Shown here in pieces: positions 14,879 to 64,000 of a stretch of 64,000 nt of DNA. How positions within the stretch are numbered: position 1 is the first letter of the stretch; every line of letters starts with the position of its first letter. The notes under the pieces were generated by a model, which saw nothing but the letters and a program-made list of their open reading frames with translations, was not told the DNA's origin and ran no database searches. The translations under genes and the position numbers were made by a program. This DNA is from Marivirga sp. (GTDB taxonomy: Bacteria > Bacteroidota > Bacteroidia > Cytophagales > Cyclobacteriaceae): positions 5,613-69,612 of the forward strand of contig NZ_DASSWQ010000014.1 of the NCBI RefSeq assembly GCF_035704835.1, in the 5' to 3' direction.

Positions 14879-14889
14879 TGAGCCAAAAT

Positions 14890-14964: not shown

Positions 14965-14971
14965 CAAAAGA

Positions 14972-15429: not shown

Positions 15430-15516
15430 TCAAAACCTGTGCCCGAGAGCGGGGCGGTTGCATAAATTCAAAATTAAATCAGATTCTTTTTTAAAATATC
15501 AGAGCTTTTTATTTAA

Positions 15517-15912: not shown

Positions 15913-15935
15913 AAAAGCTCTTAAACCGCTGAATA

Positions 15936-16136
15936 ACCCCTCAGTCCTTCGGACAGCTCCCCTAAAACAGGGGAGCAACAGATTGTGCTAAACATGAGAA
16001 GTTTGCCTAAGAAAAACTCTTATACTTCAAAGCAGAACAAACATAAGATTTAAAATAAACAGTATAAATTGGCTAGAAGCAGTTCCCCACTCCCCTCCTT
16101 ACAAAAAGGAGGGCTGCCCGAAGGGCGGGGTGGTTG
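15936..16136. repeat. 201-bp direct repeat, copy 2
   Basis: See copy 1. Followed by a partial extra end, AGTCCGAAGGGCAGGGTGGTTG (~16143-16164). Confidence 0.95.
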
Positions 16137-16225
16137 CAAATCAGTCCGAAGGGCAGGGTGGTTGAGTTGCTTGTGTGTGGCAATCAAAAAACCAAAAAAT
16201 AAATATTGAATAAATTAGCCATTTT

Positions 16226-16260
16226 TCCTTCTCCAATAGGAGAAGGATTAAAGGATGAGG
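16226..16260. repeat. Solo REP-like hairpin with purine tail
   Basis: TCCTTCTCC-AATA-GGAGAAGGA then TTAAAGGATGAGG. Confidence 0.65.
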
Positions 16261-16325
16261 CTTAATAAAAGCTTAACTTAACGACATTGAGCCTTTGGCT
16301 GGAGGCTAAATAATCTAAGCGAATC

Positions 16326-16353
16326 TTCCCCTTTTGGGGGAATTAAAGTGGGC
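16326..16353. repeat. Solo REP-like hairpin with purine tail
   Basis: TTCCCC-TTTTG-GGGGAA then TTAAAGTGGGC. Confidence 0.5.
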
Positions 16354-16359
16354 TGGCAC

Positions 16360-16398
16360 AAAAAAAGTCTCCCCGATTTTGACATCAGAGAGACTTTT
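16360..16398 (-). terminator. Terminator of rpmE2
   Basis: Minus-strand RNA GUCUCUCUGAU-GUCAAA-AUCGGGGAGAC followed by U7. Confidence 0.75.
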
Positions 16399-16423
16399 AG
16401 AAAGAAATGATAATCTAAAATTA

Positions 16424-16669
16424 TTACTTCTTTTTGTATTTTTGGTTGAACTTCTCCACACGACCTGCAGTATCCAAGAAGATTTTCTTTCCTGTATAAA
16501 AAGGGTGAGAAGCTGAACTAACTTCGATTTTAATTACTGGATATTCTTTACCATCTTCCATTTTAATGGTTTCACCTGAGGACATTGTAGACCTCGTTAA
16601 GAATTTCACATCTGCTTGAGTATCCCAAAACACAACTTCTTTGTATTCCGGATGAGTATCTTTTTTCAT
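16424..16669 (-). CDS. rpmE2: 50S ribosomal protein L31 type B
   Basis: [29 protein letters not shown]; no Zn-ribbon cysteines. Confidence 0.97.
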
Positions 16670-16719
16670 AACTACTAAATTAAATTATTGATTTCCAACC
16701 AATTCTTTTAAAAGGAATG

Positions 16720-16751
16720 CAAAAATAAGGGAAGCTTTTGTTCTTTCCAAA
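16720..16751 (-). promoter_or_regulatory. Bacteroidota promoter for rpmE2
   Basis: Minus strand TTTG, 20-nt spacer, TATTTTTG. Confidence 0.7.
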
Positions 16752-16811
16752 CCACCACCTATTTATTGGTCATATATTTTTGGTTATCTTGCACCCGCTA
16801 ATTTATTCAAT

Positions 16812-36986: not shown

Positions 36987-37169
36987 GTATTTTTCCCATG
37001 GGCTTTAAGTTGTCACGGAAATTTTATTATCATCTCATGACTGACATTATAGCTTCAATCCTTTTTCCACTAGCATTGCTCATTTTTCCACTCATGGAAA
37101 AGAATGATCGAATCTAAACTAAATAAGTCTGTAATGCTTAGATTAGCGAGAAATTTAAATGTACATACA

Positions 37170-50500: not shown

Positions 50501-53500
50501 GCGAGGAGTATTCGTAACGGTAACGATCTCATCGAAAGTAACCACTATTTCTATGCTCTCACCTGCCTTATATTTAGGTTCTAAACTGGTGGAAGTCACA
50601 TTGGTAATTTCAGCTGGGCGGGTGTCAATTATGATTGCTGCATTATCGCTTAATTTATTAGGCGCAGCAGGCAATGTCAATACCGATGGGTTGTTTATCA
50701 AATCCAATACTTCATTTTCTGAAGTGGAAATTGAGGTAACATCTAAATCCAGTGTATTTTCACCAGAATTAGCAGCTCCAATTGTATAAATAAAATTAAG
50801 TTGATCTTGATTTACACCAGTAATATTATCGAATACAGCAGTTGCCCCTGTATTTAGAGTTAATGTTGGTGCAGTTCCTGTTTGTTGAATAGCTTCGTCA
50901 AAAACCACTCGAATATTGATTTGCTCGCCAGGACCGTACGTACCATCTGCAGTAGTCGTCACTATTTCGGTTATTCTTGGGTGTTGAGTATCAATATTAA
51001 ATGTTTCTGAATCAGCCGTAACGGTAGTATTTCCCACTGAATCAGTGGCGTCAGAGATTTCTATGGTTACATTAGCAACTTCTTCCTCTACAGTCAAATC
51101 ATGTTCAAATTCAGCTCTATAGGTTTGATTATCAGACCAGCCACCTGATTGCAATATAATATTAGCATCACTAGGTAGGAAGCTTGGAGTACTTGTTTGA
51201 TCCATTACTTCATTGTAATTAACTATCAATGTTAATGTAGGATTCACTCGACTAACCGTATTAGGCGTTATGCTTGTGCTAGTTATTTCAGGACTTTGGG
51301 TATCAATTTCTATTTCCTTGCGAGTCGATAACTCATCTGCAGCATCAGCTGGTAGTGTTAAAATTGCATCATTTAAACCAGCATTTTTGATTGTTGCATC
51401 TTCTAACCTAAATCCAGTTACATCCAATAAGGCTGCATTTTCAGTTGCTAAAACGGTGTAATTAAATGTCAGTATATTATTGGCTGCATTATCAAATACA
51501 GCTATACCATTTGAATTCAAATCTAATTCTGGTGAGCCTAATGCATCATCAACGGTAAGATTTTGATCAAAATGAACTTCAATGGTAATGACATCATTAG
51601 CCTTATAAATTCCAGTAGTATTAGTAGCTGTAATGAAATCTATTCTTGCTCTGGTGGTATTAATGGTGAAAGGATCTGTCTCGGCTATATCCATAATATT
51701 ACCTGCCACATCCTCAGCATCTTCAATAATAATTTTATCAGTGATATTTTCTTCAACTCCTAAGTCATGCGTAAATGTGACGGTGTAAACTGTATTACCT
51801 AAACTCCAGACTCCATCTCCATTTTCAATTAGGTTAATTGAATTATCGGGAGTAAAACTAGGATCAATCGCACCATTCATTTCCTTATTGAATGTAACTG
51901 TTAATTCAATGGTATCATCAGTTCTATTTACTAAGGCAAGATCTAAATTAATATTGTCTGCGATAGGGTTCTCAGTATCAATTGAGAATAAATCAGCTTC
52001 ATTAACAGCATCTAATGAATTGCCATATTTATCAAAAGCATTGGAAATTGAAATATCAATATTCTCCATTAGTTCATCTTGATCTGCTAAATCAAAATAG
52101 AAAGAATAAAAAGTACTATCAGCAGACCATCCACTATTGCCATTTGGGCCTGATAAGCTATTTGTAAATAATGGATCTTCACCAACTGTAGGGAAATCAA
52201 TATCAGGAATGATTGCATCATCCATTTTCTCATTAAAAGTGACCTTAATTTCAAGCGCATCATTTCCTACATCTGCTCCAGATAATAAAGTAGGGATAGC
52301 TGTTATTTGATCAATTTCAGGTTTGGTAACATCTTCAAAATCATATTGCCTAGAAAAAGAAGATGCATTTTTATTAGCTGAGTTGGTAAAGACAATGTCA
52401 CTTATATCCAATTGAAAAGTTACAGGTGCTAAATCGATATTTACATTATCATCTACATCCAAAATCAAGAAATAATTTTTGGAATCAGAACTAAAGTCTT
52501 CAGTTAAACCTGAAAAAGTAATGGTGGTTCCTCCAGTTATATTAAGTGTACTGGTAATTGATGATTCATCACCATCATAAATATTATCAGGAGAAGCAAC
52601 TAAGCGTAAGTTATCTACTAATCCAGTTATGTCTTCATCGGTTGTGAATACAATTTCGTTTACTTGAGAAGTACCTAAAGCTGCAATTTCAAATCCTAAA
52701 ACTGCTTGATCGGTAGAACTACTTTGTAGTGTCCCCGCATTTAATCCAGCAGTTAGTTCTGTTAAACCTACTGTTGGATTTACTGTAACTGAAGTTGAAG
52801 ACAAATTAAAAAGATTAGCTCCATCCGTTATGGTTAAGGTTCCATCACCACTGCCCTGGTAATTAAAAGTTGCAGGGAACTCAAATTCACCATTAGTGAA
52901 ACTTGGAGGCGAGGGTAGGTTATCCATCGTAATAGCACCTGCATTCGTAATGGCAAAAGTGCCATAATCTAAATCTAAATTTCCATTGGCATCTTTAGCC
53001 TCCACTACTGCTTGAGGGGAAACATTTTCACCAGCGTTAACTGTTCCTGGGGGATCTGTTGTAAATTCAAATGCTGTTGCTAAAACTTCAATTTCGTTAT
53101 CGGTTTCAGATGTAGTGATTGTAGGTACAGGAGCAAATTCACTACCTGAACGAATTGTTATATTAGCTGGATCTAATTCAAACACAAGGTTTTTCAAGTC
53201 TATCTCTTCTGAAATGGTCTTTTTCAGTCTGATTTGCAATTCGAGATTAATTGATCCTCCATCCGCAAGAAAACCAAAATGAGTTGAAATATTATTATCG
53301 CTATTCCCAATGGTAACTTCTATTTGATTGGATCCAACACTAATGGTTGCAGGGAATTCCGTACTATTATTGGTATTGATTACTTTTGCATCTGCTAATA
53401 TATCATTCCATGAAGCAAAGTCATTGCCAGTACCAGCTGTAAAAGTAAAGCCTGAAATTTTCGTATCTGCGCCATCATCACCCACATCATTCATATCAAA

Positions 53501-56500
53501 ATCCATCACGGTAATGAAGTTTGCTAAATCATCATTATCATTATTCACAGAAGAAATTGCTGAAGCAGCACCTACTAAAGTGAGTGTATTTGAAGCTTCA
53601 ACAGGATCAGTAGTAATATCTATTGAGACAGATCCAAAATCATAGCAATAAGTACCTGATTTGTAAGCATAAATATCAAAATAATATTGGGTACTTCCGC
53701 TTAGTTCAGTAATGGTAACACTTGTGCCTTCATTGGCATATACAATTTTATTTCCGCTGGTGCCATCACCATCAGCTGCTGCTAAAAAGCTAGATGTGGC
53801 AATATCCCCAGTTCCTCCATCTTCAAAATTATCACCATTATTAAATGTTAAATCTACAGCAGAACCTTCTTTTGCTACGATTAAGTATCTATCAGCACCT
53901 GTAACCGCTGTCCAACTTAAGTCCACCGATACTGCTGTTACATTTGCAGGCGCATTAAAAATGGCTTCTGACTCAGGCGGTTCACAAACCGTTGTTTCTG
54001 AAAGTGTAACTGCGGTAGTATTATAGCAGAAACCACCTCTAGTCGGGTTGTACTCATAAATATCGAAACTGTAAGCAGTATTTTCATCAAGTCCCGTAAT
54101 GCTTGTAGAAGTACCATTCCCGTCATAAACTGCAAAATTGCCAGTCCCTAATTCTTGTCCAGATCCAAACTGACTATTTTCATTATAATCAATATTAGAG
54201 CTTGGAGCTTGAGCAGAAGAACCAGACTCTCGAGCTAAGATCAACACATTCCCCCCGCCTTGAATTGTCCAAGTGAGTGCTATCTCATCAAATGCATTTA
54301 CAGTAATGGAAGTGTTATTTACTTCTGTTATGGCTGGATCACATAAAGTAGTTTCCATAATAGTTTCTCCTACATTCTCATAACAGAAACCATTATCATT
54401 GAACAGATAAACATCAATTGAATATTCTTGATAATCATCCAGTCCCGTTAAGGTAAAACTAGTACCAGTTCCTTCATAAACAACATAATTACCACTAGCT
54501 CCAAACTGATCACCTGAGCTAAATGCAGCATTTGCAGTATAATCCTGTCCGTCAGTAGGGGCCGTTTTTGTTGAAGTGCTTAATCGAGCTACCGCTAACA
54601 CATTTAACCCACTGGCATTAGTCCAACTAATGTCCATTTGATTTACGGCAACATTTGAAGTGGCTAAGTCCGCTACAGTTTCCGTTGGATCCACACATAA
54701 GGTAGTTCCTGATCTCAATGGAGGAGTGTCATTATTGTAATTGTAAGTTTCATCTACAGCAACACCTCCATCATCAAGATAAGTATATGGAAGTACTTTA
54801 AAAGTGTAATCAGTATCAGCATCTAGACCTGAAATATTAACTGTAGTTGCATTTTCATCATCAACATCCACATAAAATACCTCGCCTACACCTGTTGGGT
54901 AAGTTTGATTATCAGGATTTACTCCATTCTCCAAAAATGAATCATCTAGCTCCGAATTTGATTTTGTATATAAAACGAGATAACCTGCAGCTCCAGTAAC
55001 TGCAGTCCAGTTCACTGTTATTTCTGAATTTGAAATAACAGCAAGATTAAAAGTACCATCATCCGCAACATCAGCTCCCCCATCAGCAGGAGCTTGTAAA
55101 GTATAAAAATCAACATCAGGTTTATCCGTTATATTATATCCAATGGTTGCGTCTTCAGCAGCATCTTTATTATATGGAATAATTGAAAATTTATATCTAG
55201 TAGCAGCAAGTAAGCCTGTAACAGCCACTTCTGTTGCAGCAGCTTCTGTTATTTCAACATAACTAGGTAGGCCTGTCTGCACTGCAGGCAAAACACCATT
55301 TTCAATCGTTGATAAATTAATAATTCCAGGAGCAACATATTCCTCATAATAGATTAAAAACCCACCATCATCTGAAAAACCCGGAATATTAGTAGTGTAA
55401 TCATCTAATAAAAAAGTAAGGCTTTCTGCTGTTGCAGAATCTTTAACAAATCCAGTTACAGGGTCGGGAGGTAATGTTGCGCTCGTAAACACCGCTTCTC
55501 TTTTTGTGTTGCTGGCTGTATTATAGTTATAGGTTTCAGGCACAGGAATGCCCCCGTCTGTAGCATAGGAGTATGGGATAATTCTAAAACTATATTCTGT
55601 TTTGGGATTCAAGCCTGTTATTTCAGCTTCTAGGGTAGATCCTCCATCTACATATTGAAAACCTGTTGCTTGACCGAAATCCCCTGCATCAGAATGAACT
55701 ACACCATCGGTAACACCATTCCCGTCAGGATCATTATTTCCAGTTCTATATAAAATTAAATAACCATTTGCACCCGTGGATTCATCATAACTTAGTGTGA
55801 TTGAACCATCTGTTTTACTTTCATAATTTAAGTTAGCTATGTCGTCAGATGGCTGTGTTTGTAATGTCCAGTGAGTGGCGGTAGGAGCATCACTTTTTCT
55901 ATAATGAAAAGTTTCCTCATTTATACCATCAGAATTATAAATTGGCAATATGAAAGAATATTGTGTTCCAGGATTTAATCCCGTTGCACTAATCGCAGTT
56001 GCACCATCAATTGTTTCGAATACAAAATTATCCCCGGCAATCTGTCCGTTTGGCAAATCTCCATTACTTAAATTTGTTAAATCTTCTGGTGTATCCCCAG
56101 TTTTAAAATACAAGACATATCCACCATTGTCAGGAAATGTATAACCACCAAAAGTAAATGCAATACTACTAGTTGAATTATCATCAAATTGAAAATTATT
56201 TACTGGCGAAGTAGGCTGATCTGCTAATGTATAAGCTGAAATCAACTCAATTCCAGGAGTTTTATAATTATATGTAGTAGGCTCATCAGCCGAATGTGAA
56301 AATGCAATAATTCTAAAACTGTATTCAGTAGCTTCAGTCAAACCAGTAATTGTAGGATTTGTTGAAGCTGAGCTTTGTACAAATTGATAACCATCAGCGT
56401 CTGTAAATTCGCTTCCATCTGTACTTTTAGTTCCATCAACCACTCCCGTGGCATCAGGTGCAGTATTGCCAGTAGCATATAAAATTAAATACCCATCCGC

Positions 56501-57676
56501 ATCTGGTACTGCATCATAAATAATGGACATTTCAGTTACATTCGGAATGTCCCTTGCAGGATTTATCGGGTCAGTAGTAGGTTCATCTGCCAAAGTATAA
56601 GCCGATAATTCACTATTAGTAGTTACATTATAATTGGTAGTCAATGGATCAATTCCAGTATTATAAGGAATAATGACGAATGAATATTCTATACCTGCAG
56701 ACAACCCAGTAATATCTTGACTAGTACTTGAGGAGCCAGTTCTTACAATATTGTTACCAAATGGCTGTGAATTAGGTTCAATACCTAATTCAACTTCAGT
56801 TGCAGGATCGGGGGCTGATGATCCCGTGGCCCAAAGTATCAAATATCCATCATTATCAGTGGTTTCAGCCGTCCATTCCAATTCAATATTGTTATTTCCC
56901 TTGGAGCGAACGCCAAAGTCTGCAATAGCATTGGATGTAACTGTTTCTAAAGTGTAAGTAGTTAAGGTGGTATTCCCTGTTAATTTATAGTTCGTTGTAG
57001 CTGGATCTGAACCAACATTATAAGGGATAATCCTGAAAGAATAATCTGAGTTAGCAGTTAAGCCATTAATAGTAGTTGAGGTGGTTGAAGCATCTTCAAT
57101 TAATACCTGGTTTGCATATGAAAGAGAAGCAGGAGCAGTCCCTAGATCTAAATCCGTTTCATCAGGAGCTGCGCCTCCTGCAGAATAAACGATTAGGTAA
57201 CCTGTAATATCTGTATTTTGAGCTGTCCATTCTAGCGTAATGCTGGTAGTAGTCGCGGATTGTCGCTGAAATCCTGCCACAGCGGTTGAGGTAACATCTG
57301 AATAAGTCCAAAATGAGCCCTCGGTACTAGTTGCTGTTTGAGTGTTATCTACAGTCTCTTCTGCATATAATTCATAAAAGTATTGCGTTTCAGCAGAAAG
57401 TCCTGACAAAGTTTCATCAACAGCTTGAGTACCGTTTAAACCTGCTAATGTAATTGCAGGATCTGGAGCTTGACTAGTTAAGCTTCCAGAGGTAGTTCCA
57501 TAATTGAAATAATAATCTACATCAATAGCACCAGAAGTAGTTATTTCACCATTAAGCGTTACTCCTTCATGAGTTATGTTAGTCACAGCATTAACAGAAG
57601 TACCTGTTAATTGAGCATTTGATTTAAATCCCAACAGCAATGATGCACTAAAAAATATCAGTAAAAACTTCTTCAT
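41597..57676 (-). CDS. Giant 5359-aa T9SS-secreted surface protein (FN3-like array, Ig-like repeat array, IPT/PKD-like, Omp28-like, type A CTD)
   Basis: Signal peptide; ~10 FN3-like units with GYLxxY motifs; 16 Ig-like units opening with IDTxxP; C-terminal LYPNPA...IDTRDLKTGLY...KFVV T9SS signal; uninterrupted 16-kb ORF. Confidence 0.92.
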   Translation of the reverse strand: MKKFLLIFFSASLLLGFKSNAQLTGTSVNAVTNITHEGVTLNGEITTSGAIDVDYYFNYGTTSGSLTSQAPDPAITLAGLNGTQAVDETLSGLSAETQYFYELYAEETVDNTQTATSTEGSFWTYSDVTSTAVAGFQRQSATTTSITLEWTAQNTDITGYLIVYSAGGAAPDETDLDLGTAPASLSYANQVLIEDASTTSTTINGLTANSDYSFRIIPYNVGSDPATTNYKLTGNTTLTTYTLETVTSNAIADFGVRSKGNNNIELEWTAETTDNDGYLILWATGSSAPDPATEVELGIEPNSQPFGNNIVRTGSSSTSQDITGLSAGIEYSFVIIPYNTGIDPLTTNYNVTTNSELSAYTLADEPTTDPINPARDIPNVTEMSIIYDAVPDADGYLILYATGNTAPDATGVVDGTKSTDGSEFTDADGYQFVQSSASTNPTITGLTEATEYSFRIIAFSHSADEPTTYNYKTPGIELISAYTLADQPTSPVNNFQFDDNSTSSIAFTFGGYTFPDNGGYVLYFKTGDTPEDLTNLSNGDLPNGQIAGDNFVFETIDGATAISATGLNPGTQYSFILPIYNSDGINEETFHYRKSDAPTATHWTLQTQPSDDIANLNYESKTDGSITLSYDESTGANGYLILYRTGNNDPDGNGVTDGVVHSDAGDFGQATGFQYVDGGSTLEAEITGLNPKTEYSFRIIPYSYATDGGIPVPETYNYNTASNTKREAVFTSATLPPDPVTGFVKDSATAESLTFLLDDYTTNIPGFSDDGGFLIYYEEYVAPGIINLSTIENGVLPAVQTGLPSYVEITEAAATEVAVTGLLAATRYKFSIIPYNKDAAEDATIGYNITDKPDVDFYTLQAPADGGADVADDGTFNLAVISNSEITVNWTAVTGAAGYLVLYTKSNSELDDSFLENGVNPDNQTYPTGVGEVFYVDVDDENATTVNISGLDADTDYTFKVLPYTYLDDGGVAVDETYNYNNDTPPLRSGTTLCVDPTETVADLATSNVAVNQMDISWTNASGLNVLAVARLSTSTKTAPTDGQDYTANAAFSSGDQFGASGNYVVYEGTGTSFTLTGLDDYQEYSIDVYLFNDNGFCYENVGETIMETTLCDPAITEVNNTSITVNAFDEIALTWTIQGGGNVLILARESGSSAQAPSSNIDYNENSQFGSGQELGTGNFAVYDGNGTSTSITGLDENTAYSFDIYEYNPTRGGFCYNTTAVTLSETTVCEPPESEAIFNAPANVTAVSVDLSWTAVTGADRYLIVAKEGSAVDLTFNNGDNFEDGGTGDIATSSFLAAADGDGTSGNKIVYANEGTSVTITELSGSTQYYFDIYAYKSGTYCYDFGSVSIDITTDPVEASNTLTLVGAASAISSVNNDNDDLANFITVMDFDMNDVGDDGADTKISGFTFTAGTGNDFASWNDILADAKVINTNNSTEFPATISVGSNQIEVTIGNSDNNISTHFGFLADGGSINLELQIRLKKTISEEIDLKNLVFELDPANITIRSGSEFAPVPTITTSETDNEIEVLATAFEFTTDPPGTVNAGENVSPQAVVEAKDANGNLDLDYGTFAITNAGAITMDNLPSPPSFTNGEFEFPATFNYQGSGDGTLTITDGANLFNLSSTSVTVNPTVGLTELTAGLNAGTLQSSSTDQAVLGFEIAALGTSQVNEIVFTTDEDITGLVDNLRLVASPDNIYDGDESSITSTLNITGGTTITFSGLTEDFSSDSKNYFLILDVDDNVNIDLAPVTFQLDISDIVFTNSANKNASSFSRQYDFEDVTKPEIDQITAIPTLLSGADVGNDALEIKVTFNEKMDDAIIPDIDFPTVGEDPLFTNSLSGPNGNSGWSADSTFYSFYFDLADQDELMENIDISISNAFDKYGNSLDAVNEADLFSIDTENPIADNINLDLALVNRTDDTIELTVTFNKEMNGAIDPSFTPDNSINLIENGDGVWSLGNTVYTVTFTHDLGVEENITDKIIIEDAEDVAGNIMDIAETDPFTINTTRARIDFITATNTTGIYKANDVITIEVHFDQNLTVDDALGSPELDLNSNGIAVFDNAANNILTFNYTVLATENAALLDVTGFRLEDATIKNAGLNDAILTLPADAADELSTRKEIEIDTQSPEITSTSITPNTVSRVNPTLTLIVNYNEVMDQTSTPSFLPSDANIILQSGGWSDNQTYRAEFEHDLTVEEEVANVTIEISDATDSVGNTTVTADSETFNIDTQHPRITEIVTTTADGTYGPGEQINIRVVFDEAIQQTGTAPTLTLNTGATAVFDNITGVNQDQLNFIYTIGAANSGENTLDLDVTSISTSENEVLDLINNPSVLTLPAAPNKLSDNAAIIIDTRPAEITNVTSTSLEPKYKAGESIEIVVTFDEIVTVTNTPRIALNTGDYANYTGGSGTNELTFNYTVQNSDGITLFDVVDLEYEDVNSLELNGGSIIDPASVPVDQTLPTIGSGTSLSDNTDIEIDTRDPEFTIDLDIVMVDLNDLTLTVTTNYDEAMDMTTDPSYAISQGTNLIQDNVGAWTNNTTYVETFTHNGTEEELTGITIEISGATDEVGNTAVTNTSGPFDIDTQSPEIASTSITPNTVSQVNPTFTLIINYNEVMDQLSAPGFSFSNGSNISFQSGGWTNNQTYRAEFEHDLTVEEEFDNVTIEITGATDSVGNTTVTADSETFNIDTQSPRITEIVSSTADGTYGPGEQINIKVVFDEDIQQTGTTPTLTLNTGATAAFDNITNGNELNFIYTIGAVNSGENTLDLNVTSISTSENEVLDLVDNPSVLTLPVVPNQLSDNAAIVIDTRPAVITNVTSTNVDGKYKAGDNIEIVVTFDEVVTVTNTPRIALNTGDYAEYTSGSNSTELIFNYTVQDSDGVTLFDVTDLEYNDINSLELNGGSIIDPASVPVDQTLPTIGSSNSLGDNKNIEIDTRSPEFTIDLDISMVDLNDLVLTVTTVYDEDMDMSSDPAYSFNLPNNLDKDNVGNWSDNRTYVETFTHDQTEEEISNITIEITGATDEVGNIATTNTSASFDIDTQKPRITVITSTSSGIYGPGDIIDIKVVFDEDVQKIGANPTLNLNSTGVATYVDITNGNEMNFSYTVGSVNSGENTGDLTVNSFSPSENVVLDLQANPSILNLPGGNNLGDNANIIIDTDPADVTNVTANPTSGIFKAGDVIDIIVTFNETVVVDETGGTPRLLLNTGSYANYSSGSNSTELTFTYTVASAGGSIVDVLDLEYANINSLELNGGSIVDLASVNANLVLPATAGAGSLSDNTDIEIDTTSPTVTIDLDNTEITRANNQLVLTATYNEDMDQVTTPSLNVQGSDDLILDAANWNSATVFIATYTHNLTEEEVQNVTIEVSGATDVVGNTSITNTSETFTIDTQKPRITEIVSTSSNGLYSPGDNINIQLVFDEDVTVGGTPTLNLNSGGQANYQNVTNGNEVNFVYTVGGVNSGENTLDLDVTAFNMNGGNIRDLVSNDAEIILPSDPDRLQDNADIQVDSDPADVLNVTAVPDQGFFTAGDQIDITIEFDEPVVVTGTPLLSLNTGSNAEYVSGSNSTILTFNYTVEASNGTTIVDVAELEYVDINSIDLNSGAIEDLAGISASLGLPAVGSANSLNGNTEITIDTEDPELANDPFTPFNGEFNVSHSLTFKIEMNEPVSGQGTNNITIIDKKTSSVLVVLDGGTAFTNNTSNILDFDSFENLLQDSTEYYIQIDPGALVDRAGNPFAGFNADNIWSFTTFGPPRIDDFPIDGACVGGQFIIKGQYFTGVTRIRTNIDGAEGTVLNTADFVIVDDETITFDVPEGTIPGRITLDKQSGQKGNTADASTTSDEEISVGPSSAQLVLEQASSSICDFDDLGNVNQVEISVNVVGGSGVYTLEYKVGSDDPVIRPGYVSGTTFFVTPPDDGENTITIVSLEDEELNICTVPSANLGTDLEITKFIRSKVDAGGFAENEDEIGVIELCGANTNIVDFEDENLVSNRPSIIGDVEQGTWTIDQGPSTNGGGFSPDFNLKSVQTDRPDTVKYYASFADGVSGEIQLKLTSDEPGGLNPCDGPSDLVIIRFSESLTVNTSSNVSICIDTDENGNELAVTQLNSTVSGGIESDSLTVLWERIDNTANELANYDGTWGFKDDENQTEYSLTSNVLNPIYKASPQEIDSGRANLTIQPVVLFDGVGCGDIPAPRPVTLNINDIPVLSRSDFSEIVCSGEQEVRYRMIPNDANNTFNWYFVGEDATDADDGNKFEGEVDNRNLVFINFREVETETTEILVVEEIDASSGCVSEPDTFFISLKPKPIAIIDYEESTTISNTADPILLRGLGGPDTTNLKDNSTILGQENFEFFGPGVVQNSDSSYYLDSRQLALTVLADPNDVHEIFFRYTNQFGCVADTSISFNVFNAERIFPDLDQVQYCQLNDSIQIRVDDAIIEGFEVTDINGPGISNLEYIIDVVDGDSIRALTAIFNPATAYAENQDAENPSLISISYSTVDLSNPENVQENVADQTVRVNPLPELEIEGFENFEDEGFEFSLCSFDEPLELEPIVSGTNTNIFNFELLNSEVGLPDSLLIGDNVEGFVFNQTLLQDYLANENKDSIKIEIEYTYTNQNGCTNSKVYDFVVWKQPDAPTLKSSDICVIEDGEVEDAEVIGYNGSNENEELIWLANDVFTTEQDAILGRGTTFSPGEDLFVNSNTRRFYVFRLNENSSGEDYPSCVSSPTVVTYRRIINPDFRWNKSTFGNEDIIFTGNPNQTALKSTEWTITRISDNTELGPEAFTVENDTTVAVDFNNYGAGRYEVEFSILTRNGCLANVSEKIVILPEANLANRYVYSFDGSSEGWVSDGFARNDTDSVRLWDFSVPRDTSTFESSDEVWITNASGSYESNIESYVYSPAMDIRTIERPVVSFDLWLDIAAGNDGLILEYSTDGKRIEDSEKRWVVLGDVSGAISSGLEWYNLEDIESRPGTTFIDNNGDIISNNSSANGWSLLNDSESIEPVNAKHALEEIPIDQRENVIFRFQFKSRASDGGDNFNNPDGAAFDNFVIESLNRNVLVEYFGDDNSPHDTVEMNSIKQTFETFGNFAWINYRINEDDALYQRNSSSMLSRLYFYDAYTANNQFAIDGVLNSEFSFSENNTGRNAVSRARLRSSSANLDISVNSASENELTIDVDYDILEELPETTRLFVAVLHNEVNIEGQMSSYYNVLRTLLPTNEGSALETSAGEGTLSTTFIAQKEEDEEAITIVAFLQDMENGTIIQSAYEVEVPLLTLPTVTSNTHRLDNLNIQLYPNPAYDYLKISYGAILGERLKAKVIDVTGKEIHSFDLLVGEAEHEIDTRDLKTGLYNLIIFGENGENRTMKFVVSD
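48575..51307 (-). repeat. Intragenic tandem duplication of a four-module block (1368 and 1365 nt)
   Basis: IDTQSPEI starts at 51307 and 49939. Long identical DNA runs, e.g. the 31-nt CTAACCGTATTAGGCGTTATGCTTGTGCTAG, occur in both copies. Confidence 0.92.
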
Positions 57677-57691: not shown

Positions 57692-58882
57692 TCAATCTTC
57701 TAATTCTCCAAAACCATTGGTTTTAATCAATAGTAATGTGTTCTCAATTCCTATAACAGTAGAGCCAATAGCGAAAATCCTATCATTGACCATAACCGCA
57801 TCATGTAAAACCTCATTTTCATTACTTCCGAAGGATTTGGTAAATACTTCCCCTCCGTTTGGTCCCCTTCTCGACAGAAAAAAATCTGTTTGTTCATTAG
57901 CTCCTGCCCGTGAAATTTCGGATGAACCACTTATTAAATAACCATCTTCAATTTTTTTTACGCCTCTAAGCTCATCATTACCCTCGCCACCGATAAAAAT
58001 CGGAGAAGCAGAAAATGCCTGATACATAAAAACATCAATTTGACTATTTACACTATGCTCGCCAAAAAGCATAATATTGCCTTCGGGTGAAGCCAATAAT
58101 TGTTTTGTAAAAATATTATTAGACCCAGGGAAATTAAGGGGTTCCGCATCTTCGATTTGCTGCATATTTATGCCGTTACTTCTTACTAAAACAGAATTTC
58201 CTGAATTGTAGACCCAATTTAATCTTCCATTACTATCTTTATACAATGCAGTGGCAGGCAGTGCTTTGGCTTTATGGGTTTTAAAAAAAGTCTCAATTGT
58301 CAAGTTATCTACACTTAATTCGCCATAAAAGGTGGAGTCTTCAGCATCGTCCATTTGCTCCGAACCTCCAAATAGAATTCGGGATGACGCCTCATCATAA
58401 TTCAAACCTGTTAGGCTATAATTATCTGCACCTGAAGTATAGATCTGACTATTTATGGAGTCTAATGAAGAACTGACCGTCATAAAAAACAATGCTGTAT
58501 TACCAACGGTTTGATTTCCTATTGTACCTCCAATTACTATATTGTCATTTGGCAATACTAATACCTGGCTTGCTCTCCAACTTTGATTTTGTGGATAGTA
58601 GCGTTCGGAATTAGAAACAGGTAATTCCCCATTAGCATCTACCCTTACTAGTCTAACCCTTTCAGTGATGGTACCAGAAATTGGATCGTTTATAGTGCTG
58701 TTAGAAACAATTAGTAAATTTCCATCAGAGAGCGCCTCAATTTTTAATGGGTTATCGGTCCCTCTTCCTTTAATGATTTTAATAAATGCATTCTGTTGGG
58801 CAGGAGCTATTCCTTCCTCCGTATTACATGCAAAAACAGTCATTATTATTAATGTCCATATCGTGAACTTCAAATATTTCAT
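57692..58882 (-). CDS. Lipoprotein, probable beta-propeller
   Basis: Lipobox VFAC then NTEEG; repeats such as NDNIVIGG, DGYLISG, DRIFAIG and GGxGNDE / GSNENE. Confidence 0.7.
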   Translation of the reverse strand: MKYLKFTIWTLIIMTVFACNTEEGIAPAQQNAFIKIIKGRGTDNPLKIEALSDGNLLIVSNSTINDPISGTITERVRLVRVDANGELPVSNSERYYPQNQSWRASQVLVLPNDNIVIGGTIGNQTVGNTALFFMTVSSSLDSINSQIYTSGADNYSLTGLNYDEASSRILFGGSEQMDDAEDSTFYGELSVDNLTIETFFKTHKAKALPATALYKDSNGRLNWVYNSGNSVLVRSNGINMQQIEDAEPLNFPGSNNIFTKQLLASPEGNIMLFGEHSVNSQIDVFMYQAFSASPIFIGGEGNDELRGVKKIEDGYLISGSSEISRAGANEQTDFFLSRRGPNGGEVFTKSFGSNENEVLHDAVMVNDRIFAIGSTVIGIENTLLLIKTNGFGELED

Positions 58883-59910
58883 TTTTTCAACTCAGGGTTA
58901 AATCTTGGGAAACGAAAACCTAATCTCAATATGAAAGCATGTCCTTTATATTGATTATCTGCGTAGGCAGCATCTTTTAAAATTAATTTCAATTCCTCTG
59001 TTTCTACATTTTCATTCTTTTCTTCTATAAATCGATGTTGATATAATGCCTCCACCGTGATATAATTTCTACCCAATACCTTGAAATTTCCTCTTACTCC
59101 TATAATCGCGCTTACGTTCAATAAATTTCTGTAATTAATCATGTCAAGATCAATGATTTCTGTTCCAACACCTCGAACAGAGAGTTCTGACGATAGTAAA
59201 TAATGAAATGAAGGCCCTCCAGTGGCTTCAAGTAAGAATTGATTGAAGAAAGGGAGTTTATAATTTAATAAAAATGGGAGTTCGAGCCATTGTTGCATTT
59301 CAGTAATTTCATGGTCCCCACTTGAATTTCCTTCTGCTGTCACGGTTGCCCTTTTCAACAATGTGGTTCTATAATTATAATGAATTTCGGCATTAGCACT
59401 AAACTCATCATTAATAGGATATTGAAAAAATAAACCAACTCCTATTCCTAAGGGTGGATCATAAGTACCTGAACTGGACAAATTATAGTTGTCATTATTT
59501 TCGAGTATTTGTATAAAATTAAAGCTCCCTGTAAATTTTAAGCCATAAAAAAACTTCGCATCTGTTTCAAAGTTTTCGGCTAAAATTACCAGTTCTGTAG
59601 GATCAGAATCTAAGTCTATTTGATATTCGGGGTCAATTTTAAGCAATCTCAAGAAGGATTCTTCTGCTTTATTCTGTTCTTCATTAAAAAGATAAGACAA
59701 GGTAACCAACCTCAATGCTTCTACTTTTTCTTCATCTGTAAATCCATTATCAATACATTTCAATAGTAGCTTTGGAAGCTCATTAAGTTTTCCTTCATCA
59801 TAAAAATTTCGGGCTTCTCGCAAGTTTTGCACACAAGAGCTTTGTGCAAAAGTGGTATTGGCAAAAATAAAGCATCCCACAACTATTAATAAGATTCTAA
59901 TTTGCTGCAT
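58879..59910 (-). CDS. Outer-membrane protein: N-terminal TPR-like helices plus PorT/OMP beta-barrel
   Basis: Signal peptide; ARNFYDEG...AEESFLRLLKIDPEY TPR; WLELPFLLNYK, GGPSFHYLL and LRLGFRF barrel strands. Confidence 0.75.
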   Translation of the reverse strand: MQQIRILLIVVGCFIFANTTFAQSSCVQNLREARNFYDEGKLNELPKLLLKCIDNGFTDEEKVEALRLVTLSYLFNEEQNKAEESFLRLLKIDPEYQIDLDSDPTELVILAENFETDAKFFYGLKFTGSFNFIQILENNDNYNLSSSGTYDPPLGIGVGLFFQYPINDEFSANAEIHYNYRTTLLKRATVTAEGNSSGDHEITEMQQWLELPFLLNYKLPFFNQFLLEATGGPSFHYLLSSELSVRGVGTEIIDLDMINYRNLLNVSAIIGVRGNFKVLGRNYITVEALYQHRFIEEKNENVETEELKLILKDAAYADNQYKGHAFILRLGFRFPRFNPELKK

Positions 59911-62900
59911 CGGATAGTTTTTCTAAATTTTCACACGTTTTTTCATACTCTAAATCAGCTCCCACATAGGTTGCCCATTCGTTTTTAGTCATATTTCGGT
60001 CTAATTCATCACAAAGCAAGCCACCCATTTTATCAATTGAATAAGGCCAAATATGAACTTTCCCATCCTCTGAAGCGGAGAAAATCCATTCACCAGAAGT
60101 ACTAAAATCGGTTGACCAAACCCAGTCTCCATGGTCGGATAACACGATTGGTGCCTGTATGATTTGAGATAAATTCCATATCCTTACAGACCTATCTTTA
60201 CTTGCTGTAAGCATTGTTGCCCCATTATCGCTGATCTTGATATCATCTATTCCTCCATTGTGCCCTGTCAAAGAATTAGGATTGGTAAAATCGTTGTCTG
60301 TAAATAATTTTACTTCTCCATTAATATTACCCAAGGCTAGAAAGTTAAACTTTGAAGTGATGGCACTAAGTGCGACTTTACTTCGATAGATTACAGTATC
60401 ATTTTCTCCAGAATCATCTATCCTTATCAGTTCTCCACTATCTGCCGCTAACCAGATTACATTTCTATTTTCATCAATTGTAAAATCATTAATTTTGACG
60501 TCTGATTGATATATTTTTTTGGATTGATTTGCTTCAATAGTTTTGATTGATTTACCACCGTCATCCAAAACCCATAGCTTATTATCAGCCCATTTCATTT
60601 TTACAAATGTTCCACTAACCCCTTCTATTGCTGTTGGTTGCGGATTTCTATTTTCTAAATCATAACGTTCTATAATGGATTTACCGGCACTAGTGATAAA
60701 TTGACCTGCAGCATAAATTTGATTCTTCTCTTTATCAAAAATCATAGATTTTACCACTCTTCTATCTCTTGTAGGAGCAATTGTATCTGCCACCCATTGA
60801 TTATTAACTCTATTCCATTTTAAAATACTGCCTTTGGATCCAGCTGAGAAGAACTCATTGTCTGAACTTCCACTCATTACTACTTTAGCCGATTTATCAT
60901 GAGCATTTAATTTCTGAGTTAATGGATGTTCAAATTCTTTTAAGGCAAAATACAAGCCTTCATAAATTTCAGGATCGTATTCGTAGCTATTATATCGCTC
61001 ATCAAATTCAAAAGCTTGTTGCGCCAATAGACCTTTTAGCTGCGGATCATTTATTTGAGTTGATTTCACCGCCATGGCATTCGCAATGGCCAGATATCTC
61101 AATTGGTCGGCTCTAGCTTTTTGTTGTTCTGCTCTGTCTCTTTCTAAATCCGCTTGTTGTTTTGCCTTGGTAGCTTTAATTGCCTCTTCACTTGCCACAC
61201 CCTCCGCTTTCACTGCTGCAATTCTACTTATTTCAGCCTGTTCAGCTGCTTGAATTGCTTTTTGTTCTTCTAATTCGGCTCTTCTTGCATTTTCTTCAGC
61301 CTCCTTTTGAGCTGCGATTGCACGTTTTTCTTGTTCAGTTGCAATATCTTTCTGCTGTTCAGCAACTAAAGTTTGCTGTTCGGCTTCTAGTCTTGCTTTT
61401 TCTGCTTCATTCTTTTGCTCTTCAGCCCTTGTCTGCTGAATAAATGCATAAATCAAAAATAAAATGGAGATGACTGTGGCTCCACTCATAATCAAAGTTG
61501 TTAATCTTGCAGTTCGCAATCTTCTCTTCTGCTGCAATTCTTTGGCTCTTTGCTCTATTTCATATTCTTCTGCAGAATGTTCTAAGAAGGAGATAGTCCG
61601 CTCATAGGCCGGATGATGGCGTTGTCCCCAAATTAATGTAGGATTATGTTTTTCTTTCCAGTTTAAAGCAAGTTGTAAATCTGGTGGACGCCACAAACTT
61701 GTTTTTCCTTGTTGAAACATATCAGCCGCTTCAGCCAGCCTTTTGTACATGGCCACGGCATCTGCTTCATCATTCACCCAGTTTTTTAGTCTGTTCCAAA
61801 TTCTCATAATGCTTTCATGAGAAATATCAATAATGGAATGACTGTGAATAGGAATACCGTATTGCGGAGTTAATAAGGACCGACTCGGATCGCGGAATTT
61901 TTCAATTACTTGAATAATTTGCTCCTCTGAAGTATCCGCGATAGCGGCTATTTCATTTAATTGAGTTGGTCTTCGAATTCCATAACTTCCGCCCCCTCTT
62001 TTTTCCGTAATGGCTTTAAATAAAAATTCACAAATTCTTTGCTGCTCATCATCTAGTTCTTCAAAAGCTTCATTAGCATGCATAGATAAAGCCTCCGCCA
62101 TGGTACCGATTGCCTCATAATGCTTAATATCTAATAACTCATTTTCAAAATCTTTAAAATTGCTCCAATAATCCCAAGTTCGCATAAGGGCATGCTGTAA
62201 AATGGGAAGCTGATCGGGATTATCTCCTAAGTCATTTAAAAGTTGTTGGGTTAATCTTGGAGCAATTTCAGCATTTCCAACAGCGACCGGTCCTGTGATA
62301 GCGCGCCTTTTCTGCTCACGCGTCATTTGCGGAATTAAATATTGGCTTTCATTGATTTGGCGAGTCAATTCTGGAAACTGAGAACATTCCCCAATAAAAT
62401 CTGAGCGCATGGTAATGGCCACATATATTGGCGCATCTGCATAATTAATAGCCTCCATCAGAAGATTAATGAAAGCTAGCGTTTCGTTTATGGTTTGAAT
62501 ATTGGAAGAATCTTTGAAACGAAATAACTCCTCAAATTGATCAACTAAAATGAGATAGTTTTTTTCCTCATCACCTTTAAATTGCATTATGGTTTCCACC
62601 AAACCAACAGAGGAACTTCTGAGAAGAGACGATATAATGGTTTTCCTGATTTGCTTGTCTTCATCTGACAGATGTTCATCTACCAAATCGGTTTTCAATA
62701 AGGCTTGCGCCAAATTATCAATTGGAGCTGCGCCTGGCCTAGTCACCACTACTTCCCATTCTGTTGATCGGCCGGTGAGAAATCCTCCATATAATATGGG
62801 TAAAACCCCACAGTAAATAAATGAAGATTTACCACTTCCAGATGGACCTATAACACCCACAAAGCGATGTTTCGATAACTTCAAAAGTACCTCATCGCTT

Positions 62901-63028
62901 TGACCTTCTCTGCCAAAAAATAAATGGCTTTCCTCAATTTTGAAAGGACGCAATCCTGGAAAAGGATTGTTTTTCTTCCCGTATTGAGTTTGAATAGGTT
63001 CTGTTATGGTGATTTTTTCCTCCTTCAT
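59897..63028 (-). CDS. nSTAND1-type P-loop NTPase with TM helix, long coiled coil and C-terminal WD40 propeller
   Basis: NPFPGLRPF..FFGRE, Walker A GPSGSGKSS, Walker B LVDQFEELF, GDNPDQLPILQHAL; TM at ~61440-61505; WD repeats (ASKDRSVRIW, SASEDGKVHIW). Confidence 0.92.
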   Translation of the reverse strand: MKEEKITITEPIQTQYGKKNNPFPGLRPFKIEESHLFFGREGQSDEVLLKLSKHRFVGVIGPSGSGKSSFIYCGVLPILYGGFLTGRSTEWEVVVTRPGAAPIDNLAQALLKTDLVDEHLSDEDKQIRKTIISSLLRSSSVGLVETIMQFKGDEEKNYLILVDQFEELFRFKDSSNIQTINETLAFINLLMEAINYADAPIYVAITMRSDFIGECSQFPELTRQINESQYLIPQMTREQKRRAITGPVAVGNAEIAPRLTQQLLNDLGDNPDQLPILQHALMRTWDYWSNFKDFENELLDIKHYEAIGTMAEALSMHANEAFEELDDEQQRICEFLFKAITEKRGGGSYGIRRPTQLNEIAAIADTSEEQIIQVIEKFRDPSRSLLTPQYGIPIHSHSIIDISHESIMRIWNRLKNWVNDEADAVAMYKRLAEAADMFQQGKTSLWRPPDLQLALNWKEKHNPTLIWGQRHHPAYERTISFLEHSAEEYEIEQRAKELQQKRRLRTARLTTLIMSGATVISILFLIYAFIQQTRAEEQKNEAEKARLEAEQQTLVAEQQKDIATEQEKRAIAAQKEAEENARRAELEEQKAIQAAEQAEISRIAAVKAEGVASEEAIKATKAKQQADLERDRAEQQKARADQLRYLAIANAMAVKSTQINDPQLKGLLAQQAFEFDERYNSYEYDPEIYEGLYFALKEFEHPLTQKLNAHDKSAKVVMSGSSDNEFFSAGSKGSILKWNRVNNQWVADTIAPTRDRRVVKSMIFDKEKNQIYAAGQFITSAGKSIIERYDLENRNPQPTAIEGVSGTFVKMKWADNKLWVLDDGGKSIKTIEANQSKKIYQSDVKINDFTIDENRNVIWLAADSGELIRIDDSGENDTVIYRSKVALSAITSKFNFLALGNINGEVKLFTDNDFTNPNSLTGHNGGIDDIKISDNGATMLTASKDRSVRIWNLSQIIQAPIVLSDHGDWVWSTDFSTSGEWIFSASEDGKVHIWPYSIDKMGGLLCDELDRNMTKNEWATYVGADLEYEKTCENLEKLSDAAN

Positions 63029-63029
63029 A

Positions 63030-63998
63030 TTAGCTTTCTCTTGCCACTTTTACTTGGCTATTTTCATAAGCCAGTTCAATAGTCTTAATAAAATTAATTA
63101 CATTTTTGGAATCTCCGCTAACATCAACTTCCACTTCATAACGGCTAAGGTATTCATTTTCAATACCTTTAGCCTTTTCGGATTTGAACAACTTTCCTAA
63201 AATGGGTTTAGAACGTCCGAAACCTGGCGCTTTTAATAAATCCAAAAGTTTCATGTAAACCCACTGATTATTTACCTTTTCCTGAAATACAATAGCCGCA
63301 TCCATTTGCTTCAGACAATCGATGTGCTTATTACGTAGCTCCATCAAATCTCCTTTATTTTCTAAAGTGAGAAGAGTTACATTTTGAGCTTGAATTTCGT
63401 CTACCAAAATGGAGGCTGCTTCTCGGTCTATTTCATCATAAATTAAGTAGATGTTCGCCCTCTCTTGGGACGCATCTAAATATAAATTTCTGAGCTTTTT
63501 ATTTAAGCCTTTTTCCATCAGTTCTTCCCAGAGTGTATTCTTAAAATCTTCTAGAGAAGTTTGTAATACTTCTGCTCCTCTAGAGGATTTATCATCTCTT
63601 TTAATATTGTGAATAAAAGATTTTTGCTTTTCGCTAGCATATTTTAGTGAGGGACTAATCCAAATCAACCTACTAAAATCTGAGGCGCTTGACTCTGAAT
63701 AATCAGCAGCCAAACTATTTTGAATATCCATAACTGAGCTTTCCGAATCTTTTGGAATTGCTCCATAAGATGCTCCTATCATATGCACAGAAAATTGACA
63801 CTTTTCTAAATCTGCTTGAATTGATTTCTTTAAGCCTGAAAAGCTTTGAGGTAGTAAGCTTTTAGGATACACATCATATCCATGTCTAATTAATTCTCTT
63901 TTGATAATATTTCTTGCACCTGATAAATCTTGACCCGTTTCTGCCAAATAAACAGTCTTTCTTCCATGTGATCGAGTATTTTTCTCTGTTTGATTCAT
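63030..63998 (-). CDS. Protein with tandem TIR/DUF4062-like Rossmann domains; may extend beyond the window edge
   Basis: KTVYLAET...SVHMIGASYG (domain 1); NIYLIYD...DAAIVF...QWVYMKL (domain 2). The upstream codon is cut by the window end, so the start is unverified. Confidence 0.65.
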   Translation of the reverse strand: MNQTEKNTRSHGRKTVYLAETGQDLSGARNIIKRELIRHGYDVYPKSLLPQSFSGLKKSIQADLEKCQFSVHMIGASYGAIPKDSESSVMDIQNSLAADYSESSASDFSRLIWISPSLKYASEKQKSFIHNIKRDDKSSRGAEVLQTSLEDFKNTLWEELMEKGLNKKLRNLYLDASQERANIYLIYDEIDREAASILVDEIQAQNVTLLTLENKGDLMELRNKHIDCLKQMDAAIVFQEKVNNQWVYMKLLDLLKAPGFGRSKPILGKLFKSEKAKGIENEYLSRYEVEVDVSGDSKNVINFIKTIELAYENSQVKVARES

Positions 63999-64000
63999 TT

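Follow-up and report, generated by a model that had tools for sequence, protein, structure and literature searches.

The window analysed here is a 64,000-nucleotide stretch of the genome of Marivirga sp. (Bacteroidota, order Cytophagales, family Cyclobacteriaceae; RefSeq assembly GCF_035704835.1, contig NZ_DASSWQ010000014.1, positions 5,613 to 69,612 of the forward strand). Near its end, on the minus strand, it encodes a protein of 1043 residues, here called C, in which a STAND NTPase and a WD40 β-propeller are held apart by a single hydrophobic helix and a long helical stalk phased by alanine. The gene is the third of six (A to F) that form one operon. With a probability that we put at roughly 0.6, C acts in the inner membrane as a bitopic STAND switch that senses outer-membrane or surface assembly and signals via its stalk to B and A, the products of the two upstream genes. 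The characterised STAND and NLR switches (Apaf-1, the plant and animal NLRs, Avs, and MalT) sense, to our knowledge, ligands in the compartment in which they oligomerise; a STAND switch with its sensor across a membrane, at a fixed distance of 18–19 nm, would be a new route for information through the Gram-negative envelope. The analysis was carried out in silico throughout.

Results and Discussion

The propeller of C is predicted to be periplasmic

The hydrophobic helix of C (LTTLIMSGATVISILFLIYAF, residues 509–529) directly follows the basic motif KRRLRTAR and is the sole 19-residue window of the protein with a Kyte-Doolittle value above 1.6 (peak 2.38). One hydrophobic helix was found at position 500–524 in all of the 120 closest full-length homologues (52–80% identity) and, at the same position, in the top 150 cluster representatives (clustering at 50% identity; 33–60% identical to C) without exception. 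Over the 269 homologues analysed it was kept in every one and comprised 20–27 uncharged residues (median 23) with a Kyte-Doolittle peak of ∼2.5. Its flanks are unequally charged. Within 15 residues on either side, these 269 sequences contained on average 6.8 lysines and arginines on the N-terminal side and 3.2 on the C-terminal side, the N-terminal side being the richer one in 262 of them, and the mean net charge of the flanks was +5.3 and −0.2, respectively. This bias amounts to a strong positive-inside signal, which indicates that the N terminus lies in the cytoplasm and the C terminus outside of it.

The cysteines of C point in the same direction. Cys1006 and Cys1032, both located in the helical cap that follows the propeller, are kept or lost jointly: among 82 aligned sequences, 68 contained both, 1 contained a single one, and 13 contained neither (Fisher p = 3e-14, a value that overstates the independence of the observations because the test ignores shared ancestry). 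Where the pair is missing, the replacing residues vary, and the three conserved cysteines of the predicted cytoplasmic part showed no comparable coupling (pairwise p ≥ 0.014). Such joint retention or loss is what a structural disulfide would produce, in keeping with an oxidising compartment. Four independent sequence signals, namely the positive-inside bias, the cysteine pair, the gene for an outer-membrane barrel located downstream (see below), and the conserved length of the stalk, argue for a periplasmic propeller, and it is very probable, as judged from these sequence features, that the NTPase of C is cytoplasmic and its propeller periplasmic.

The AlphaFold2 model of C (based on 82 homologues; mean predicted local distance difference test, pLDDT, 87.4) comprises, in this order, the NTPase with a helical module, one long helix, two linker helices (within residues 662–698), the propeller (residues 706–995), and a small helical cap. 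The long helix (residues 475–527 and 530–658) passes straight through the hydrophobic segment, as read solely from the secondary-structure output for a monomer.

The stalk is an alanine-phased helix of conserved length

In the AlphaFold2 model the stalk (residues 530–658) is one unbroken helix of 129 residues, rich in alanine (24%), glutamate (17%), and glutamine (14%), with one proline and two glycines. An alanine opens each of 17 consecutive, in-phase heptads (A535, A542, and so on until A647), and A528, still inside the transmembrane helix, shares this phase. When the sequence was shuffled with its composition preserved, the longest run of such heptads was 2.9 on average and 9 at most. The array recurs in the family. 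Among members of 990–1,100 residues it starts where the transmembrane helix ends and most commonly counts 18–19 heptads, and the C-terminal part that follows is of constant size (interquartile range 390–404 residues). Across the family, position 1 of the heptads is alanine in 97% of cases, position 4 is glutamine, alanine, or asparagine, and positions 7 and 2 are partly occupied by leucine, isoleucine, or valine.

When its length was determined by family comparison, the stalk of C measured 118 residues and the family median was 125, that is, one heptad more (interquartile range 118–125). Length differences between two invariant anchors were multiples of seven in 40 of the 82 sequences, where ∼12 would be expected by chance. 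At 1.5 Å per residue, the 118–129 residues of the stalk correspond to 17.7–19.4 nm. For comparison, GldM is ∼180 Å long and spans most of the Bacteroidota periplasm (PMC5790014).

Other architectures were considered for this helix and rejected. A single α-helix of the ER/K type is not supported by its composition (glutamate, lysine, and arginine make up just 34%) or by the number of i/i+4 salt-bridge pairs (12, compared with 8.6 ± 2.4). A classical leucine-zipper coiled coil would show a hydrophobic moment at the heptad angle, which is at background (z = 0.2), the alanine stripe alone being periodic. A helical hairpin, which would halve the length of the stalk, disagrees with the one helix given by AlphaFold2 and with a phase of alanines unbroken over 17 heptads. 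The helical region of C also matched the model for TolA (domain II; NCBIfam NF007065) with an E-value of 0.0076 and 15.3 bits, the cutoff being 213 bits, and this match below the cutoff is explained by similar, alanine-rich composition.

The long stalk is not a property of all transmembrane relatives of C. In a class of relatives longer than 1,150 residues, only 3–8 alanine heptads precede a C-terminal part of 600–950 residues with multiple WD40 arrays. Such short-stalk relatives indicate that a periplasm-spanning ruler is not universal among proteins combining nSTAND1 with a transmembrane helix and that the long stalk is specific to one subfamily.

Much of this anatomy had been proposed in a preliminary description of the DNA, which placed a STAND NTPase with a WD40 domain at 59897–63028 and assigned the NTPase to the cytoplasm and the propeller to the periplasm. 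The boundaries of the open reading frame are exact (minus strand), Pfam matches confirm both domains, the basic patch and the hydrophobic helix are present as quoted, and the proposed topology is supported in silico by the flank bias in 262 of 269 homologues, the cysteine pair, the barrel gene in 72 of 74 loci, and the length of the stalk. The computational checks suggested there for the helix came out in favour of a membrane span: the segment is the single hydrophobic one (peak 2.38), conserved in 269 of 269 homologues, and in the model it is predicted to belong to one continuous helix (475–658) and not to short, packed elements. As to the stalk, the description had envisaged a coil of ∼115 residues, rich in E, Q, A, K, and R, that would roughly span the periplasm with ∼17 nm. 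Its composition and its span (17.7–19.4 nm, near the ∼180 Å rod of GldM) stand; its length in residues was put too low (the AlphaFold2 helix has 129), and the vague coil is in fact an array of periodic heptads.

The NTPase looks intact and the propeller is variable

Residues 22–442 of C match the Pfam model PF20703 ("Novel STAND NTPase 1") with an E-value of 2.7e-97 (327.2 bits, cutoff 27.1) and align to positions 1–375 of its 379, which by sequence makes C a bona fide member of nSTAND1. The NTPase is the best-conserved region (mean identity 55%), and the invariant columns of the 82-sequence alignment include G61, G66, K67, S69, D163, E166, E167, R208, and H279. With Walker A and B, the sensor Arg208, and the winged-helix His279 all invariant, the nucleotide switch looks intact, as far as conservation can tell. 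The NTPase begins at residue 22, and neither Pfam nor AlphaFold2 revealed a further catalytic domain or a fused effector in C.

Downstream of the stalk, the linker (residues 662–698) is modelled with pLDDT above 90, has a mean identity of 42%, and is constant in length (57–58 residues). The region of residues ∼705–1,000 is matched by Pfam WD40 and β-propeller models. It is the most variable part of the protein (24% identity; 15–19% in blades 2–4), with a length that is constant nonetheless (289–297 residues), and the strand pattern given by AlphaFold2 is compatible with seven blades. The cap carries the family consensus C....RN.T..EW..YVG.DI.YE.TC. When the model of C was searched with Foldseek, the best match in the PDB was full-length Apaf-1 (E 5e-19), and the propeller superimposed on 7-bladed WD40 domains with TM-scores of 0.8–0.86. 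When a profile of the entire C family was run against the PDB, it hit WD40 proteins only and no nSTAND1 structure.

C is encoded together with outer-membrane and surface proteins

The genes around C (Table 1) are tightly packed: the stop codon of B lies 1 nt ahead of the start of C, there are overlaps of 14 nt between C and D and of 4 nt between D and E, a gap of 15 nt separates E from F, and no terminator-like site was found on the coding strand between the genes of the operon. The arrangement is conserved. In 80 named Bacteroidota loci, as far as they were assessable, a homologue of D directly follows C in 72 of 74, B directly precedes it in 61 of 72, A is located upstream in 63 of 65, and a giant open reading frame (at least 900 residues) occupies the place of F in 39 of 44. 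D also follows C in 19–21 of 22 further loci from ∼13 families. Compared with the TIR-like gene (61 of 72), D (72 of 74) is thus the most faithful partner of C. Fulvivirga lutea and a genome of the Cyclobacteriaceae show the same order of genes, and the subtypes of the operon correspond to clades on the tree of C. A search for related loci beyond the phylum returned Bacteroidota loci only. Of 151 sampled Cytophagales genomes, 58 encode C (37 of 86 genera), as do ∼7 of ∼290 sampled genomes from the rest of the phylum.

One well-supported subclade (L079, L082, L087, L092, L096, L100, L103, and L106) lacks the TIR-like gene B; there, A is located 65–160 nt upstream of C, and D, E, and the giant gene are retained.

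Table 1. Coordinates of protein C, its domains and motifs, and the other genes of the operon. Positions are those of the window, except those with the prefix L006.
Feature	Position	Strand	Basis
Gene C, nSTAND1-transmembrane-stalk-WD40 protein, 1043 aa	59897..63028	-	Open reading frame, Pfam, AlphaFold2, Foldseek
nSTAND1 NTPase and winged-helix module, aa 22-442, predicted cytoplasmic	61703..62965	-	PF20703
Walker A GPSGSGKSS, aa 61-69	62822..62848	-	Sequence; G61, G66, K67, S69 invariant
Walker B ILVDQFEEL, aa 159-167	62528..62554	-	Sequence; D163, E166, E167 invariant
Basic patch KRRLRTAR, aa 501-508, predicted cytoplasmic face	61505..61528	-	Sequence, flank charges
Single transmembrane helix, aa 509-529	61442..61504	-	Kyte-Doolittle, conservation, AlphaFold2
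Predicted periplasmic stalk helix, aa 530-658	61055..61441	-	AlphaFold2 helix, composition
Alanine-heptad array, 17 heptads, A535 to A647	61070..61426	-	Shuffles, family comparison
Helical linker from stalk to propeller, aa 662-698	60935..61045	-	AlphaFold2 helices 662-679 and 686-698
Seven-bladed WD40 propeller, aa 705-996, predicted periplasmic	60041..60916	-	Pfam, AlphaFold2, Foldseek
C-terminal helical cap with covarying Cys pair	59900..60040	-	Alignment of 82 sequences
Cys1006 of the cap	60011-60013	-	
Cys1032 of the cap	59933-59935	-	
Gene A, 1046 aa, ~12 transmembrane helices, HEAT repeats, weak cNMP-binding-like C-terminus	L006:7097-10237 (past the window end)	-	
Gene B, 485 aa, TIR-like and DUF4062 units	63030..64000 (3' part); full gene L006:5643-7100	-	
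Gene D, 343-aa outer-membrane protein	58879..59910	-	Pfam OMP_b-brl_2, AlphaFold2, Foldseek
Gene E, 396-aa β-propeller lipoprotein, DUF5122 type	57692..58882	-	Lipobox, profile match
Gene F, 5359-aa surface protein with a type IX secretion sorting domain	41597..57676	-	Por_Secre_tail, fn3

The AlphaFold2 model of D (pLDDT 92.3, predicted TM-score 0.83) consists of a signal peptide, a TPR-like domain of four to five helices (residues 23–92), and a β-barrel (residues 118–337), the nearest folds of which, according to Foldseek, are OmpA, OprG, and OmpW. The TPR-like domain would face the periplasm. Like the cap pair of C, Cys26 and Cys52 of D covary (both present in 46 sequences, a single one in 1, neither in 6). 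The N-terminal domain of D also gave a weak match to the TssQ family of NCBIfam. With the SprB/SprF gliding operon as comparator, a PorP/SprF identity of D was considered; its barrel is of the OmpA/OmpW type and no Pfam PorP/SprF match was obtained, and membership is not claimed.

E possesses an invariant lipobox cysteine (Cys19), and its family profile matches the C-terminal β-propeller domain of CylK (E 1e-28), with Pfam DUF5122 present in 13 of 31 members. Aspartate and glutamate are enriched at positions +1, +3, and +4 after the lipid-modified cysteine, which we take to resemble the signal used in Bacteroidota for the surface export of lipoproteins. [quoted passage not shown]

On the cytoplasmic side, B comprises three Rossmann-like units with weak matches to TIR_2 and DUF4062. 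Its third unit contains an invariant Lys413 after Trp409 (W409xxxK413), which presumably occupies the position of the catalytic glutamate of TIR domains, a placement made by eye from the motif and from the known features of TIR NADases, not from an alignment to a reference TIR. With a lysine at this presumed site, B is perhaps a scaffold and not an NADase; its sequence suggests a non-catalytic scaffold or different chemistry. The C-terminus of A resembles cyclic nucleotide monophosphate (cNMP)-binding domains at a level below the cutoff (E 0.0016), and its part with 12 transmembrane helices matched no transporter family of Pfam or NCBIfam, even at E ≤ 5.

A proposed trans-envelope switch and its alternatives

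How C might operate as a switch can be sketched from this anatomy. A helix (residues 475–658) would run from the cytoplasm through the membrane and continue as a rigid stalk of ∼18–19 nm, built from 17–18 alanine-phased heptads, and linker, propeller, and the disulfide-stapled cap would sit at its tip, close to the periplasmic surface of the outer membrane. There, the propeller may dock on the periplasmic TPR-like domain of D, which would act together with the lipoprotein E and the giant, T9SS-displayed adhesin F as the outer part of the system. A change in the outer-membrane or surface assembly, for example engagement, load, loss, or mis-assembly of the adhesin, would be the trigger, and altered packing or register of parallel, alanine-striped stalks could transmit it. 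The change in the stalk would control whether the NTPase exchanges its nucleotide and oligomerises, and the oligomer would engage the Glu-less TIR/DUF4062 protein B and the membrane protein A as output in the cytoplasm; transmission in the opposite direction, inside-out, is just as conceivable. What the computations establish is the domain anatomy, the conserved transmembrane helix, the periodic stalk of fixed length, the covarying cysteines, the linkage of the operon, and the folds of C and D; the topology (strongly), the contact between C and D, the signal, its direction, and the output are what we infer. The most comprehensive version of this proposal, in which the six genes of Cytophagales form one vertically inherited trans-envelope receptor with an alanine "ruler," an NLR-type switch, a silent TIR scaffold, and a cNMP-domain protein, is tentative and, taken as a whole, rather doubtful.

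Several observations weigh against C being such a switch. The stalk has no classical hydrophobic a/d seam along which parallel helices could pack, and residues 510–600 of the monomer model have a pLDDT of 45–70, which is, for its part, expected for an isolated helix. Some members of the family have a very short stalk and two propellers, for example one from Candidatus Accumulibacter; being diderm, too, this single named short-stalk relative does not tie stalk length to envelope type, and most of the others are not assignable to organisms. C is patchily distributed, a pattern that accessory or conflict systems show as well (58 of 151 Cytophagales genomes), being absent from four of the seven genera of its own family, and the pairing of TIR with STAND is a hallmark of conflict systems (Kaur et al, 2021; PMC8195603). 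The cysteine covariation was assessed as if the sequences did not share ancestry, and the contact between C and D is drawn from the adjacency of their genes.

The alternative that fares best, albeit an improbable one, is that the operon encodes an envelope-guarding abortive-infection or conflict system, in which the propeller watches the assembly of barrel, lipoprotein, and adhesin as an entry site of phages or predators and, once it is disturbed, the STAND oligomer activates B and A to stop the cell's growth or to kill it. The definition of nSTAND1 comes from counter-invader systems, among which TIR+DrHyd followed by nSTAND1 is listed (PMC8195603), and the patchy distribution (58 of 151 genomes in the order, ∼7 of ∼290 outside), a propeller that is the most variable domain (24% identity, 15–19% in blades 2–4), and a giant surface protein that differs highly between loci would all suit such a system. 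However, PADLOC yielded P-loop-level matches only for C (mad3, E 6e-4; mad8, E 2e-3; ∼20 residues each) and nothing but P-loop noise for its neighbours, and no mobile-element or defence-island genes were found around the operon in the window. The gene order is strictly conserved in ∼100 loci and the operon types follow the tree of C, the length of the propeller is invariant, unlike in hypervariable sensors, an invariant lysine occupies what was judged by eye to be the catalytic glutamate position of the TIR-like protein, and a whole subclade dispenses with the TIR gene and retains A, C, D, and E. The preliminary description had implicitly framed C as an immune sensor akin to Avs, for which we found no support: compared with Avs and the bacterial NLRs, C matches no defence model, has no fused effector and a sensor that is predicted to be periplasmic, and lies outside any island context, among housekeeping genes and in a conserved operon. 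With operon subtypes that follow the tree of C and two complete copies of the operon in this genome, C looks like a built-in signalling device and not like a mobile gene for phage defence.

Somewhat less probable still is that C serves mainly as a structural tether or assembly factor, with stalk and propeller linking the inner membrane to the outer-membrane anchor of the adhesin, much as TolA-Pal or GldM-GldKN connect the two membranes, and the NTPase acting as an assembly checkpoint or chaperone in the placement or movement of the adhesin and not in signalling. A stalk of fixed length close to that of GldM, the weak match to TolA below the cutoff, and the tight genetic linkage of C with the barrel D, the lipoprotein E, and the T9SS cargo F are all compatible with such a role, as is the known coupling of Bacteroidota outer-membrane proteins to periplasmic machinery (PMC12635249). 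The invariant Walker A and B motifs, the sensor arginine, and His279 fit a working nucleotide switch, and neighbours resembling cNMP-binding and TIR proteins, together with a PP2C phosphatase next to a paralogue of C, point to signalling. STAND NTPases are slow conformational switches, not motors. In addition, the giant gene is missing beside C in 5 of 44 loci and in several of the 22 further ones. That, finally, the hydrophobic segment is buried in a soluble fold or forms a peripheral anchor and all of C, including the propeller, is cytoplasmic like Apaf-1 and Avs is very improbable: nSTAND1 with a β-propeller and no transmembrane helix is listed 427 times in the supplement of PMC8195603, the known WD40-STAND proteins are cytosolic, and pLDDT is low around the segment, but 20–27 uncharged residues in 269 of 269 homologues with a strong positive-inside bias, the one long helix that runs through the segment in the AlphaFold2 secondary structure, the restriction of the covarying cysteine pair to the part following the segment, and an obligate neighbour (D) that is an exported outer-membrane protein all speak against it.

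Relation to known proteins

C shares with Apaf-1, the AP-ATPase/NACHT-type STAND proteins, and Avs the order of a P-loop NTPase and a winged-helix switch followed by a WD40 propeller. It differs from Apaf-1 and Avs in having a transmembrane helix and a stalk of 129 residues, a single seven-bladed propeller, and neither a CARD nor a fused effector. The position of helix and stalk, between switch and propeller, would place sensor and switch in different compartments. In geometry, C is rather reminiscent of TolA (domain II) and of GldM/PorM, which likewise consist of one transmembrane helix, a long and rigid periplasmic rod, and a partner-binding domain at its end. Domain II of TolA and the stalk of C are both helices rich in alanine, glutamate, lysine, and glutamine; they are not homologous in sequence, the TolA match staying below the model's cutoff, and TolA domain III is not present in C, the C-terminal domain of which is a WD40 propeller. 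Moreover, TolA and GldM have tiny cytoplasmic parts and are driven by stators that use the proton motive force, whereas C has a cytoplasmic NTPase switch of 500 residues.

The logic of C is closer to that of PknD from Mycobacterium tuberculosis, in which a Ser/Thr kinase inside the cell is connected by a single span to an extracytoplasmic β-propeller. Unlike PknD, C has a STAND NTPase in place of the kinase, a long periodic stalk, and a dedicated outer-membrane partner encoded alongside. By these comparisons, C resembles TolA and GldM in geometry and bitopic receptor kinases in logic, without apparent membership in either family.

The domain layout of C has been catalogued before. In the supplement of Kaur, Iyer, Burroughs, and Aravind (eLife 2021; PMC8195603, Figure 2 source data), "nSTAND1+TM" is entered 412 times and "nSTAND1+TM+BetaPropeller" 278 times, where TM denotes a transmembrane segment, and C is thus not a unique oddity of this genome. 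Entries of the same family agree with C in domain order and in the two upstream genes, one of these being given as TIR+DrHyd. One homologue, P0039 from Fulvivirga kasyanovii (1054 residues), is 55% identical to C over 97% of the length and is presumably the Fulvivirga kasyanovii entry of that supplement. The main text of the same paper does not use the word "periplasm," contains no passage on transmembrane segments of nSTAND1, and treats nSTAND1 as a conflict-system NTPase. The operon strings listed there end at the NTPase gene, and the barrel, the lipoprotein, and the giant adhesin are therefore not included; nor does it describe the stalk with its alanine heptads, the paired cysteines, or the genes conserved downstream of C. 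A later paper raised a periplasmic localisation for some STAND targets diversified by diversity-generating retroelements, which is a different setting. Searches of the literature for periplasmic WD40 proteins, transmembrane STAND proteins, or alanine zippers in connection with the periplasm returned nothing relevant, and targeted literature searches found no paper that proposes a trans-envelope role or describes the ruler of alanine heptads, the signature of a disulfide, or the conserved outer-membrane partners.

If C works as a trans-envelope switch, NLR- and Apaf-1-like switches would include true transmembrane receptors that report on the condition of the cell surface, and tens of thousands of proteins combining nSTAND1 with a transmembrane helix may act likewise. 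A very large family that is still uncharacterised would then have to be interpreted differently, 150 of its 150 top representatives carrying the transmembrane helix; 14,855 clusters (50% identity) match C at E < 1e-30, a count inflated by matches to WD40 only. The system might also offer a way into the monitoring or control of giant T9SS adhesins.

Paralogous operon and genomic surroundings

The nearest homologues of C are Marivirga proteins with 75–80% identity. The same genome contains a second, complete paralogous operon on another contig (G000:C9:1-20000, genes at 5698-18227, minus strand), the C of which is 40% identical to the one in the window. This second C lacks the C-terminal cysteine pair. 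In the paralogous operon, the gene directly upstream of the TIR-like one encodes a membrane protein with Reg_prop/Y_Y_Y and SpoIIE (PP2C phosphatase) domains, and ahead of it stands a gene for a multi-spanning membrane protein of 844 residues that differs from A.

The remainder of the window encodes housekeeping functions, including the β subunit of ATP synthase, ABC transporters, phosphoglucomutase, and polysaccharide synthesis. A polysaccharide and capsule cluster at ∼9400–18500, with a UDP-glucose/GDP-mannose dehydrogenase and a Wzi-like capsule assembly protein, is ordinary context. Close to the operon, on the opposite strand (37104–39614, plus), lies a gene for a protein of 836 residues with the domains DUF5117, DUF5118, and DUF4953 (Met-zincin).

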